DNA from: Octopus vulgaris
Lineage: Eukaryota
Length of the DNA stretch: 64,000 nt
Assembly: GCA_951406725.2 (NCBI GenBank)
Contig: OX597838.1
Location: forward strand, 25,730,001 to 25,794,000
Reading direction: 5' to 3'
Part shown: positions 22,191 to 37,224 of the stretch, one piece after another
How positions within the stretch are numbered: the first letter of the stretch is position 1
Layout of the letters: each line of letters begins with the position of its first letter
The notes under the pieces: generated by a model
The model's database searches: none
What the model saw: only the letters and a program-made list of their open reading frames with translations
Told to the model about the DNA's origin: nothing
Made by a program: the position numbers and the translations under genes

Positions 22191-22340
22191 ATATACATAT
22201 GTATATATATATGTCATGCTAGCGGTCCCACCCATGCAAGCATGGAAGGCAGACATTAAATGATGTTGATGATGATGATATATGTATATGTATGTATATA
22301 TATCTCCGTCTTCCCTTCTCTGAATCTTTCCTTTTCCTAT

Positions 22341-22375
22341 GTTTCTGACGAAGAGCTCCGCTCGAAACGTTAAAC
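22341..22375 (+). ncRNA. Minimal type-I hammerhead ribozyme motif (intact core)
   Basis: GTTT-CTGACGA-A-GAGC-tcc-GCTC-GAAA-CGTT-AAAC: stem I GTTT/AAAC, CUGANGA, extra A, stem II GAGC/GCTC, GAAA, palindromic stem III (AACGTT), GUU triplet. Confidence 0.75.
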
Positions 22376-22476
22376 CCTCCTTCCTCCCTTCCTTCCTAAG
22401 CGTCCAATAATACTATATTTGTTCCACGTCCTCGCATTGTTGTGTTTTCTCTTTGTGTTTTCATGTTTGGATTAAC

Positions 22477-22514
<38 letters not shown>

Positions 22515-22515
<1 letters not shown>

Positions 22516-23382
22516 AGGATTGGTAGAAAGTAACTAAGCATTAGAAATTGCTTATAGAATTTTTAGTATCATTGAAGTTATGACAAAAACATTTTTTAAA
22601 CAGACAACACTGATGGGGATTTCTTATTGTCTTATTTCTTAGTTCCCAGATGGCCAGTTGCTTGACTGTTCCAGAGTGAGCTAAGATAGCAGCATGCTAT
22701 AAAATGTGGAATGCCATTATTTTTGGTTCAGAGATGGTGGTGTGCATGATAAGGTAAGCATGCAACAGAGGCAATAAAAGGTTGTCGTGCAAAGCATGAC
22801 CACGGACTCTGTGAACGATGCAAGAACAAGTGGCCGTCCAACCACATCCCGATCAGCGGAGAATGTGGCAACTTTGCAAGAAATGTTTAATCGCAGCCCG
22901 CAAAAATTCAACACATCAAGCTGCTCGTGAAAGTGGACAAACAAGACACACAATATGTTCAGTGTTGCATAAAGAATTGAAAAGTGGAAACCCCATTACG
23001 TGCAGCAGGAGCTAAAACCTGATGGGATGATGCGGACCTCATGAATGGCCTCCAAGAAGTCCAGATCTCTCTGCATGAGATCTTTACCTGTGGGATTATA
23101 CAAAAGAGGGATTACACAAAACCTCACACACTGGAGGACTTGGAAACATGGATTCAAGAGGTTCTCAATGACAACCCAGACAACGTCCATCAGAAGGTTG
23201 TTCATTCCATCCCTAGCTGTTTGAGGAAACTGGTTGATACCACCAGTGCTTATGTTGAAGTATGAAGATTTACTTTCATTTTCCCATGTAATAAAGAACA
23301 TGTATCATTTGTTTCAATAAATTTGTAAAAGGAATATGGATTTTATAACCAATTTTTAATGCCTACTTACTTTTCACCCAGC

Positions 23383-32519: not shown

Positions 32520-32741
32520 ATTGACATGGCTCAGAAAGATTGATACAAATGTACAGCTAGAACACCTACAAAAATCAGCATTGCTTGGAACTGCAAGAAT
32601 TCTTTGCAGGGTTCTTGAAGCATGACCAGTAAACAAACGTTGCCTTAGTTTGCTGGCTATGGACAGCTGACACTTTCCATCATACCCAGCAAAATTAGCT
32701 GTGAGTTTTCATCAAATAATAATAATAATAATAATAATAAT
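32520..32741 (+). mobile_element. R4/Dong-like element 3' end with (AAT)n tail
   Basis: LQKSALLGTARILCRVLEA* followed by a short UTR and (AAT)n; a second AAT-tailed fragment follows, to ~32900. Confidence 0.65.
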
Positions 32742-33219
32742 TAAGAGGAATTCTTTGGGCTTTGAATAATTCACCTGATGTACCCTTATCAGACAGGTAG
32801 TCATGATGGGTATATTGGACTTCATATATTTGTACCACCGTGTCACTTTGAAGGCATGCACTGCTCTCTCACTCAATAATAATAATAATAATAATAATAA
32901 TGATATAATGGTTTCAAATTTTGGCACAAGGCCAACAGTTGTGGGGAAGGGGATAAGTCAATTACATTGACCCCAGAACTGAACTGGTACTTATTTTATC
33001 AAGTATGAAAGGCAAAGTTAACCTTGGCAGCGTATGAACTCAGAATGTAAAGAGCTGGAACAAATGCTGTTGCAAGCAAAAATAAATATTGATAAAGAAA
33101 CACATTTGGCTAAATTTGAATATACAACAGTTTAACATAACAGCAACCATTGGTTTTACAGATCAGATGCCAACTGACATATCTAATACATCTTACCAAT
33201 ATTATATCTGTACATAAGT

Positions 33220-34455
33220 CATATTCTCAGAAAGATATCCTTGCTCCTCACAGATGTATTCACACAGGTGAGAAACCATATCATTATGATATCTGTGGTA
33301 ATTCATTCTCTCCAAAAATTAACTTAACTACACAAACGTATTCATTCTGGAGAGAAACCTTATCACTGTCACATCTGTGGTCAATGATTCCTTCAAAAAG
33401 GTGTACTTACGACACACAAACGCACACATACAGGAGAAAAACCATATCATTGTGATATCTGGAAAATCATATCACTGTGAAATCTGTAGAAAATCATTCA
33501 CTCAAAATAATTTCTTAACTGTACACAAACTCATTCATACAGGGGAAAAAAACCCATCTTATTGCGATTCCCTCTCTTTGGGAGAGGCACAAGCACCTAC
33601 ACGCACATATACACACAAGGCAGTAACTTCCGCCTACCGAATTCAATCACAAAGCTTCGGTCAGCTCGGGGCTATAGCAAAAGACACCTGCCCAAAGTGC
33701 CACGCAGTGGGACTGAACCTGAAACCACTTAGCTAGGAAGCAAGCTCCCTAACCACACAGCCATGATATCTGTGGAAAATCATTCTTTGAAACTGGTCCC
33801 TTCACTAAACATAAATGCACTCATACAGGAGAGAAGCCGTATCACTGTGACATCTGTAGTAAATCATTCTCTGTTAATGCATTGTGTCTTAAACAGACAC
33901 AAATGCATTCATATTGGAGAGAAGCCATATAGTTGTGATATCTGTGGTAAATCATTCTCCAAAACTGATCCCTTAACTAAGAGGAGAAAACCATATCAGT
34001 GTGATATCTGTCATAAATCTTTCTCCTGAAGTGATTCTTTAACCACTCGCAAATACAGTCATACTGGAGAAAAACAATATCAGTGTCATATCTGTGGCAA
34101 ACCATTCATTGAAACTTCTCACTTAACTAAACATATACACAAGCGTACAGGAGAGAGACACTGTGACGAGTCATTCTCTAGGAATGATTCCTTTAACTAC
34201 ACACAAACACATTCATACTGGACAAAAACCATATCAAAAGCCATAATATGTGTGCTAAATCATTCTCTCAAAGCAATTCTTTGATTAAACACAAACACGT
34301 TCAGGCAGAAGAGAAACAATATCGGTGCGATATCTGTGGTAAATCATTCCCTCATAAAGCACAATTTACTACACATGCATCAAATCGTACAGAAGAGTAA
34401 CAATATCATTGTATGAAACACTTTGTATTACAATAGATATATTCACATAGAGAAA
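33220..34455 (+). pseudogene. Degenerate tandem C2H2 zinc-finger array
   Basis: Repeated [17 protein letters not shown] motifs in shifting frames, with stops; interrupted by a SINE fragment at ~33560-33762. Confidence 0.9.
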
Positions 34456-34904
34456 AAAGCCCTGAGTCCACACTGTAGAGTGGTTGGCATTTGGAAGGGC
34501 ATCCAGTTGTAAAAATCATGCCAAAATAGACACAGTAGCCTGGGGTAGTCTTCTACCTCGCCAGCTCCTGTCAACCGTCCTACCCATGCATGCGTGAAAG
34601 ACAGATGTTAAACGATGTTGATTGTTTTTGATATACATGTATAGGGTGTTTGAAATGGTGTACAGATATTGCATGTTAAGAAAAAATAGGCAGTCAGAAT
34701 TTTGGATAATTCTTTATTAGCACTTTTGTTCATTTAACCAAACTCTTCAAGCAAAATTGAACCAAAATATTTTGGATCAATTTTCCTTAAAGAGTTCAGT
34801 TAATCCAAAATCCTGACTGCCCCCTTTTTCTTAATATATATATATGATAGATCGCTAGCCACTAAAACTTTTTCTATTTTCTCTCCCTGTTTATTTCTGT
34901 GTTC

Positions 34905-34940
34905 CTTTCTGTTGAAGAGCATAGGCTCAAAACGTTAAAG
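34905..34940 (+). ncRNA. Degenerate hammerhead motif, CUGUUGA variant
   Basis: CTTT-CTGTTGA-A-GAGC-atag-GCTC-AAAA-CGTT-AAAG; stem I covaries (CTTT/AAAG). Confidence 0.55.
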
Positions 34941-37224
34941 ACTTTCTCACTTCCCAAGCATTAAACTAACACATCTGTTTGTTGTTTACACATCCATCTT
35001 CGTGTTTTTGTATTTTTTTTTTGTAAATTCTCACTATATATATGCAAATAGATACAGATTTATACAAACCATATTATCTGTACAAATAAGAGAGACAAAA
35101 ATGAAGTGAAAAGCCAAAAGAGAAATGTCCCAGTTAACGTATAAGAGAAGAAATAAAAAAGAAATAGAACAGAGGCATAATTAAATGTGTTTACATATCA
35201 AATGAATGATACATTAAATAGCTTAGAATTAAACAGAGATAGACAAGTAAACATTTTATGTATATAATGGGCACAAGTATGGCTTTGTGGTTAACTGGTT
35301 TCTTTCCCAACCACATGGTCTTATGTTCAAGTCCCACTTCATAGCACCTTGAACAAGTGTTTTTTTTTATTGTAGCTCTGGGACCAATCAAAGCCTTGTG
35401 AGTGGATTTGGTAGATAGAAACTGTGTAGAAGCTCATTATGTGTGTGTATGCATGGATGTATGTGAGCATGTGTATTCGTCTCCTTGTCTATACACTGCA
35501 TGATAGTTGTAAATGAGTGTCACTGTCATACAAGCATGTGGAGGCACATGGCTAAGTGGTTAAGGAGTTGGACTCATGATTGTATGGTTGCAGTTTCGAT
35601 TCTTGGACCAGGTGATGTGTTCTTGAGCAAGACACTTCATTTCATGTTGCTCCAGTCCACTCAGCTGGCAAAAATGAGTAGCCCTGTAAGGGACTGGTGT
35701 CCCATCTCGGTGGGGAATATATACGCCATGAAACTGGGAAACCAGCCCTTGTGAGTCGGTATGACTTGGGAAGGTAACTTTACTTTACAAGCAGTATCAT
35801 GCCTTTACAATATTTTGCAAGCACATGTGTGGGCATCGGGAAGTATTAGCTTGCTTGGAAACAGGTAAGGGTTGGCACTACAAAGGGCATCAATCTGTGG
35901 AAAATCTGCCTGAATACCCTCAGTCCGACGCATACAAGCAGGAAGAAGTGGATGTTAATTGATGATGAAAACAATGATAATACATGGCTCAGTGGTTAGG
36001 GTGTTGGGCTCACAATCATGAGGTAGTAAGTTCGATTCCTGGACCGGGCTGTGTTTTGTTTTGAGCTAGACACTATATTTCGCATTGCTCCTGTTCACTC
36101 AGCTGTAGATATGTGTTGTAACATCACTGGTACCATCTGTATCTTCTTTTTCTGTTGGATAATATTGGTGGCATGGAGAGGATGGGTGACTACTGGTCTT
36201 CCATAAACAACCTTGTCCGGACTTGTGCCTCAGAGGGAAACATTCTAGGGGCAATCCCATGGTCATTCATGATAAAAGGGGGCCCTAGAATATTAGATAC
36301 CTACAGGTCAAATATAATAGAACTGTTCCATGATCAAAGCATTCCAGCCATGACCATCTACTTTTAATTTCAGGACTAATGTATGACAACTACTTTATCA
36401 CATGACATCATTTTATAAACCAGTGAGGTCTTGATTTGAATTGATGTGATTCTGAGGGAGATGTGATTACCATGTCTAGTAGATGGCGTGGCCATAAACA
36501 GGCTTATTGTATTTGTTATTTTTTTTTATTGCCCACAAGGGGCTAAACATAGAGGGGACAAACAAGGACAGACAAAGGGATTAAGTCGATTACATCGACC
36601 CCAGTGCGTAACTGGTACTTATTTAATTGACCCCGAGAGGATGAAAGGCAAAGTCGACCTTGGCGGAATTTGAACTCAGAATGTAACGGCAGACAAAATA
36701 CCACTAAGCATTTTGCCCGGCGTGCTAACGTTTCTGCCAGCTCGCCACCATAAAGGCTTATTGTATTTGTGCGTTTGAAAGGAATTGATCAGGCGTCAGT
36801 ATTCATATAGAGAACCTATTTAGTAATTGTTGAAGGGGGCACCCATTTGTCATGCACGAGAGTGTCATACACACATGCCACCACCATCATCTCCTCACTC
36901 CCTCAAAATAATTAGTGAAAATTGCTGCTGTTATCTATATCTGGGGTTTATATTTGCATCAATTAATGACAGAAGTTGCATGAACTAGAATTGGGTGGGT
37001 GACTGTGATGGTGGTGGTGGTGATGGTAGTGGTGATTGTGGTTGTGGTGGTGGTGATGATGGCTGTGATGGTGGTGGTGATTGTGATGGTAGTAGTGGTG
37101 GTGGTGATGATGGCAGTGATGGTGGTGGTTATGGTAGTGGTATTCTTGTTGCGGTTCAGTTCCAAGTTAGGTACGATATACCAACCCTTTAATCAAACAC
37201 ATTATTTGTATTACTCTCTTTTAC

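Follow-up and report, generated by a model that had tools for sequence, protein, structure and literature searches.

Short (TA)n-flanked elements with minimal hammerhead motifs in Octopus vulgaris, probably truncated 3′ ends of Penelope-like elements

We analyzed 64,000 nucleotides of the Octopus vulgaris genome (assembly GCA_951406725.2, contig OX597838.1, positions 25,730,001–25,794,000, forward strand; this whole stretch is called the window here). Five related elements of approximately 180–400 bp, four of them 180–195 nt long, lie at the places and on the strands proposed in a first-pass annotation. They fall into two subfamilies, A and B, and every element carries a minimal type-I hammerhead motif. 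The five elements, named e1 to e5, are as follows.

22303–22482, forward strand: e1, subfamily A, between (TA)n runs; the sole fully intact hammerhead, C3 at 22345, predicted cut at 22371, stem I formed by 22341–22344 with 22372–22375.
23424–23820, reverse strand: e2, subfamily B, the longest copy, with a CA-rich 5′ extension reaching (TA)5 at 23821–23830; C3 at 23553, predicted cut at 23526, A6U and G8A.
30067–30253, forward strand: e3, subfamily A, (TA)6 at the 3′ end only; C3 at 30125, predicted cut at 30151, core intact, stem III palindrome broken (ACGU to ACAU).
30495–30688, reverse strand: e4, subfamily B, (TA)n at both ends; C3 at 30617, predicted cut at 30590, core damaged (G5A, A6U and G12A), palindrome broken (ACAU).
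34846–35034, forward strand: e5, subfamily B, (TA)n at both ends; C3 at 34909, predicted cut at 34936, A6U and G12A.

The 5′ boundary of e2 probably lies near 23820, past the 23720 given earlier. All ten pairs of elements align well above shuffled sequences (local alignment z of 9–30; none of 200 shuffles matched the score). The two A copies (e1 and e3) are identical at 124 of 170 aligned positions, and the three B copies (e2, e4 and e5) share 78–83 % identity. No sixth copy was found in the 64-kb window by a profile hidden Markov model (HMM) built from the five (next best E 1.6), and a covariance model of the five elements run with filters off gave no further copy there (next best E 0.16). 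The copies form a local cluster (uniform placement would give a span of ≤12.6 kb with P=0.007), so that the figure of "five copies in 13 kb" overstates their density five-fold; the window gives 5 per 64 kb, or 78,000 per Gb.

The hammerhead of e1 is complete, with a 4-bp stem I, CUGANGA, an extra A, a 4-bp stem II, GAAA, ACGU and a GUU cut site, as anticipated for the copy at 22341 with its predicted cut after GUU at 22371. It agrees in every letter with the published consensus for minimal type-I hammerheads of the Penelope kind, even in the additional base that follows A9, and this earlier assignment stands. The core (CUGANGA...GAAA...UH) with stems I and II is present in e1 and e3 and carries lesions in e2, e4, and e5. 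An extra base between positions 9 and 10.1 and a G10.1–C11.1 pair occur in all five copies. The palindrome ACGU is kept in e1, e2, and e5 (three of five), and it reads ACAU in e3 and e4. Position 6 is U in all three copies of subfamily B. Apart from A6U there are six lesions, and four of these are CG to CA changes, the kind that neutral decay usually leaves in methylated DNA. The G8A change is private to e2, because position 8 (place 23548) reads G in 96 % of the summed contig depth of sequencing run X1. The ribozyme of e1 is free of variants among the best 40 of the 155 variants in the contig comparison, and judged from these contigs e1 seems close to the family majority. Position G12 is the general base of the hammerhead (PMC11014351).

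A relaxed descriptor gave two matches scoring at least 12 in the window and none in each of eight block-shuffled windows. A strict descriptor, written after the motif at 41551 described below had been seen, matched twice (22345 and 41551) and not at all in 100 shuffled windows. Rfam reported no hammerhead at 22300–22480 at E up to 10 (four chance matches), and none for the whole window among the 150 matches listed of 264, all of them microsatellite-driven and below the gathering score. Folding z-scores are ordinary (−1.4 to 0.2) and covariation is not significant. One could take this silence to mean that the hammerhead likeness arose by chance in a U-rich repeat. Rfam silence and ordinary folding are, however, probably due to the missing stem III, and the shuffles, the exact fit to the consensus and the position before (TA)n, which is the same as in Penelope-like coding loci, effectively refute chance and leave it next to no probability.

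The variation within the stems is slight. Seven of the eight stem pairs are invariant, the stem II arms are unchanged, and the single double change is the split between A and B; the covariation score was reached in 51 of 500 shuffles. The stem I covariation noted earlier, one pair in eight, is not supported as evidence of selection. In monomer folding, the fold with stems I and II has a probability of 0.001–0.033. The core is predicted to pair with the palindrome in e1, e2, and e5 (for e1 this is the lowest-energy fold), and the designed dimer is predicted to be 8–23 kcal mol−1 less favourable than the best dimer fold; tertiary contacts and proteins are not part of these models.

The 3′ ends of the elements are fixed with respect to the motif. 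The predicted cut lies 97–111 nt before (TA)n in all five copies, whereas a random site meets its first TA run 90–115 nt downstream with a probability of 0.026. The stretch between the cut and (TA)n is pyrimidine-rich (65–71 %). The 5′ ends are variable, at 41–267 nt before C3: the distance from a (TA)4+ run to C3 is 41 nt in e1, 267 nt in e2, 71 nt in e4, and 63 nt in e5. Thus (TA)n flanks the 3′ side in five of five copies and the 5′ side in four of five. Four copies have it on both sides, so that a split insertion target is a better reading than a tail, and the description "(TA)n-tailed" is not supported. Family A runs on upstream of e1: at 22304, contigs have loose ends that are similar to the beginning of e3. 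A profile of 122 related proteins, searched in six frames, detected no coding remnant beside the five elements.

A tRNA-derived short interspersed element (SINE) was rejected as a candidate. By the standard consensus for RNA polymerase III (Pol III) boxes, no A box was found at one mismatch in any of the five copies, and the B-box-like match consists of the ribozyme's own letters.

A coding remnant and a further hammerhead motif lie a few kilobases downstream.

39814–40602, forward strand: Penelope-like open reading frame (ORF) remnant, 5′-truncated and with an in-frame stop; thumb, CX4CX2C linker and C-terminal GIY-YIG domain with CCHH.
41545–41655, forward strand: decayed hammerhead, the remnant's probable 3′ end; position 3 at 41551, then 73 nt of U-rich sequence, then (TA)n.

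The remnant begins in (TA)n, and its GIY-YIG domain is matched by Pfam with E 2.9e-7. It is 59 % and 53 % identical over approximately 256 amino acids to two proteins with reverse transcriptase and endonuclease (P0001 and P0037, respectively). The profile of the 122 related proteins matches 39814–40593 in the window, and the second-best match to the remnant among these proteins is octopod-named. Under the domain scheme published by Craig et al. 2021, its architecture is of the Neptune/Nematis type, the two clades not being told apart; as read from its truncation and interrupting stop, the remnant is dead. The hammerhead at 41551, approximately 950 nt after the stop codon of the remnant, has a U3–A8 core, A13C, a 4-nt palindromic insert, and a 2-bp stem I. 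The feature at 41545–41655 probably belongs to the remnant over a 3′ region of about 1 kb; a CA/TA-rich patch at approximately 40840–40930 could be a break between them. Read in this way, the remnant ends with a hammerhead, a U-rich stretch and (TA)n, as e1–e5 do.

Other traces of mobile elements are present in the window. A MITE-like (miniature inverted-repeat transposable element) inverted repeat with 192-nt arms (87 %) lies at 41696–42120, between (TA)n runs and right after the 3′ end of the remnant. Faint older Penelope-like coding traces are seen at 11929–12147 (forward strand, independent E-value (iE) 0.01) and at 13648–13854 (forward strand, iE 0.0009); the latter adjoins a fragment of a long interspersed element (LINE), and no hammerhead was found after it.

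Bacterial genome records yielded 40 loci with related ORFs, which are apparently contamination from animal hosts. Eight of the 40 loci reach the endonuclease region, and a sense-strand hammerhead follows the ORF in four of these eight. A script detected those in L003, where stem I is weak, in L004 and in L011; that of L002, a variant with an extra U, was recognized by eye. GAAA is followed by a (TA)4+ run after 62 nt in L002, 65 nt in L003, and 205 nt in L004. The order ORF, hammerhead, short U-rich stretch and (TA)n is, as far as these sequences go, a common 3′ end of the group. Two further searches for loci, one with an alignment of the endonuclease (no genome locus and one weak, uninformative metagenome locus, L001) and one with a wider alignment in viral contigs (no locus), added nothing. 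L011 looks like a partial tandem, since a new ORF starts soon after its hammerhead. The Penelope-like ORFs in bacterial records include L002, L003, L004, L011, and L012, several with hammerheads, and some database proteins of the remnant's family are labelled as bacterial GIY-YIG nucleases.

Since some of the ORF loci have this order at their 3′ ends, e1–e5 can be described as that end minus the ORF, which is evidence of an architectural kind. We therefore consider, with moderate confidence, that e1–e5 are probably 5′-truncated 3′ ends, that is, solo pieces of pseudo-long terminal repeats (pLTRs), of two related Penelope-like subfamilies of the Neptune/Nematis type. The fixed 3′ end, the variable 5′ ends, the TA flanks and the likeness to the 3′ ends of the ORF loci all support the solo-pLTR reading, which the first-pass annotation had already offered.

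Several observations weigh against such an origin. Element e3 has no clear 5′ TA flank (the nearest (TA)4+ is 342 nt before C3), and the five copies have no conserved or shared start codon near or downstream of their hammerheads. Four of the eight ORF loci showed no hammerhead, L009 and L025 by script, while L005 and L010 end too soon. An autonomous element sharing the terminal sequence of e1–e5 was not found: a profile of the elements was unmatched in 41 loci, their covariance model gave nothing significant in 17 of the 41, and exact motif scans of viral, genome and metagenome contigs gave no matches. The 3′ end of the remnant is unrelated in sequence to e1–e5 (z of −0.6 to 0.9). As it also carries a different hammerhead, of a third family, the remnant's family is not the source of e1–e5; the idea that enzymes like that at 39821 mobilized them is thus not supported as a family link, and this remnant is itself truncated and interrupted by a stop. 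Finally, the length of four of the five copies (180–195 nt) and a drop of about ten-fold in summed contig depth approximately 60 nt upstream of the e2 core would also fit a short dedicated master.

Such a master would be a SINE-like, non-autonomous Penelope derivative of about 190 nt, transcribed on its own and mobilized in trans into (TA)n by Neptune-type enzymes. Enzyme and ribozyme class would be as for truncated ends, and the template alone would differ. A rough copy number of 6 × 10^4 to 1 × 10^5 per subfamily suits it as well, and U6 in all three B copies suggests relaxed selection on the master. However, the 5′ ends differ among copies and e2 continues for approximately 270 nt. The loose ends of contigs show that most relatives diverge from e2 upstream, which can explain the drop in depth. 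No A box is present, and the likeness to a B box comes from the ribozyme's own letters. We regard a short master as unlikely.

If e1–e5 are truncated Penelope-like ends, their formation may be pictured as follows. The GIY-YIG endonuclease of the element would cut a (TA)n microsatellite, a target preference known from the literature and in keeping with the TA flanks seen here. Craig et al. 2021 (PMC8557442) tie the preference for (TA)n targets to the CX2-5CxxC linker and remark that short 3′ ends are very numerous. Reverse transcriptase would then start approximately 100 nt downstream of the hammerhead cut, where the 3′ ends are observed. An internal start of this kind is suggested by an Anolis element, in which reverse transcription starts at 111–118 nt of the ORF and the hammerhead cuts at +26, that is, 85–92 nt before the start (PMC11167929). 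In target-primed reverse transcription of the element RNA, copying would stop early, and what is left would be short, its 5′ end varying from copy to copy. Judging from the literature, a pLTR hammerhead could cut solely in dimeric form or when the protein of the element is present. Single minimal hammerheads do not cleave in vitro and dimers cleave weakly (PMC4209133; PMC6765202), while cleavage by the Anolis hammerhead needs the element protein and is dispensable for insertion in vitro (PMC11167929). A lone genomic copy without a partner would decay, often by CG to CA changes. On this account the five copies are very probably inert passengers.

The intact hammerhead of e1, with no variant among those best 40 of 155, could instead point to active ribozymes that the host retains and that cleave its transcripts. 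Solo minimal hammerheads remain uncleaved in vitro, however, and the Anolis one needs the element protein. The lowest-energy fold of e1 pairs the core with the palindrome, the copy sits amid transposable element (TE) debris, and four of the five copies are damaged, all of which makes a host function very improbable. No gene model spans the elements, and Pfam searches of 8 and 139 longer ORFs returned nothing spanning them, although small exons would be missed. The domains found in these ORFs are those of TEs, decayed zinc fingers and one EMRE-like exon.

The earlier term "retrozyme-like" implies a further origin, in which tandem monomers of a retrozyme lacking long terminal repeats (non-LTR) cleave themselves, are circularized and reinsert through rolling-circle reverse transcription. 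The size of e1–e5 is near the retrozyme range and dispersed retrozyme monomers exist. Relative to the DNA run X1, run X11, which we guess to be RNA, contains the element at a level approximately 100-fold higher than that of the Tc1-like flank, a weak hint of transcription. On the other hand, no tandem units with hammerheads were found in 21–43 kb, and no joint between a 3′ end and its own 5′ end appeared among the 15 joints listed of 98. The motif is of the minimal Penelope type, with a 4-bp stem I and no stem III, and not of the canonical retrozyme type, and the ribozyme is fixed approximately 100 nt from a TA-anchored 3′ end. In the published sense the term is not supported, for want of tandem units, and we judge a retrozyme origin improbable.

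The abundance of the elements was estimated from contig depth. In run X1, the summed depths over the ribozymes were approximately 6.5 × 10^4 and 6.9 × 10^4 times that of the contig identical to the locus, and in run X6 they were 8.5 × 10^4 and 1.4 × 10^5 times that of a typical flank contig; such sums are not copy numbers, and the two subfamilies may cross-map. Run X22, with the same species label as X1, gave 160 reads, a depth below 4 on the elements and 0 on a flank that is multi-copy in X1. It lends no support to the estimate and is probably not comparable with X1. In view of these caveats we take from the data only that the copy number is probably in the tens of thousands, the depth sums and the density in the window being of the same order. 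The expected high copy number is thus roughly supported, but a large active "ribozyme load" is not, as only one of the five copies is fully intact and none is in tandem. A 2026 annotation of Octopus vulgaris describes a Penelope-like expansion at approximately 20 % divergence, with ribozymes unmentioned in the part available, and a paper on the giant squid counts 235 Rfam hammerhead loci.

The U at position 6 in all three B copies is the sole unusual point. It is possible, though doubtful, that subfamily B is Penelope-derived and made up of tens of thousands of copies of a master that was already U6 (CUGUUGA); the sample consists of three copies, and position 23550 is not among the best 40 of 155 variants. 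Folding predicts that A6U zips the motif into a plain rod-like hairpin. Changes at position 6 strongly lower cutting activity in Mg2+, the change measured being A6C (PMC3088659, PMC7151607). Or else A6U may be a natural change of the core that is tolerated, with rescue by the element protein. If a U6 master did exist, subfamily B would be a natural experiment on the scale of a genome, indicating that self-cleavage is dispensable for Penelope-type mobilization in vivo and that the motif is perhaps a signal for protein recognition. This subfamily bears on what hammerheads do for Penelope elements: if lineages with an intact core and with U6 coexist in comparable numbers, genome data alone could serve to test whether cleavage is needed. 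The elements are also useful for repeat annotation, in which short ends of this kind frequently receive the label unknown or SINE.

The surroundings of the elements are rich in other repeats, and the mix of SINEs, microsatellites and zinc fingers probably fits an octopus genome. Elements e1 and e2 face each other across 0.9 kb, amid Tc1/mariner-like remnants (21683–23385). A 21-bp minisatellite of approximately 35 copies (93 % matches) occupies 24053–24772. A decayed C2H2 zinc-finger array at 33141–34400 (forward strand), with stops and frameshifts and broken by a SINE, precedes e5, which starts approximately 450 nt downstream on the same strand. Part of this array is covered by a 362-nt inverted duplicate (33066–33427 and 38825–39186; 100 % identical, 5.4 kb apart), which is either a very recent duplication or an assembly artefact. 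On the reverse strand, 44038–45357 holds part of an RTE-like LINE ORF, which includes reverse transcriptase and a PHD-like finger. Just one host exon was clear in the window, an intact-looking coding stretch for an EMRE/SMDT1-like mitochondrial protein at 58641–58925 (forward strand; PF10161, E 9e-26).

Minimal hammerheads of Penelope-like elements are reportedly treated by Lunse et al. 2017 (as cited in PMC6765202), and the Neptune and Nematis clades of endonuclease-bearing (EN+) Penelope-like elements are said to go back to Arkhipova 2006. The hammerhead class itself has been known since 2014, and e1–e5 add a probable cephalopod example. We found no paper on an octopus or cephalopod family of hammerhead Penelope elements in the literature, with most subscription journals and Repbase/Dfam outside the scope of the search. 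The Naiad elements of octopus (Craig et al. 2021, File S1) share the preference for (TA)n in cephalopods; they differ in having an N-terminal endonuclease and no canonical hammerhead. When three short motif strings were compared with the supplement of that paper, the ribozyme was unmatched among the matches listed.

Non-LTR retrozymes, which are thought to derive from Penelope pLTRs, are likewise short, non-coding and equipped with a type-I hammerhead (Cervera and De la Pena 2020, PMC7229834; Li et al. 2026, bioRxiv 10.64898/2026.07.22.740005). As described there, they form tandem units, mostly with canonical hammerheads stabilized by loop–loop contacts, and circular RNA, whereas the present elements are solo, minimal, TA-anchored and mostly broken. 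The Neptune/Nematis clades of EN+ elements (PMC8557442) offer a further comparison. The remnant shares with them the C-terminal GIY-YIG domain with CCHH and the CX2-5CxxC linker, and (TA)n targets, 5′ truncation and a hammerhead near the 3′ end are shared as well. Elements e1–e5 differ in being non-coding, and their clade is suggested by architecture only.

Among the closest systems are the minimal hammerheads in the Penelope pLTRs of metazoans (Cervera and De la Pena 2014, PMC4209133). These are likewise of type I, with a short stem I and U-rich flanks, and have the same extra base between 9 and 10.1, the same G10.1–C11.1 pair and the same palindromic ACGU in place of stem III. The stem II of the present elements differs in being just 4 bp. 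The U6 of subfamily B is absent from the printed alignment in Fig. S3 (56 motifs by its legend), whose search descriptor required A6. The 2014 set is without a cephalopod, and the copy number here may exceed its 2,000–9,000 per genome. In both cases, most motifs occur singly as dispersed copies, thousands per genome, and were read in that paper as probable remains of truncated elements.

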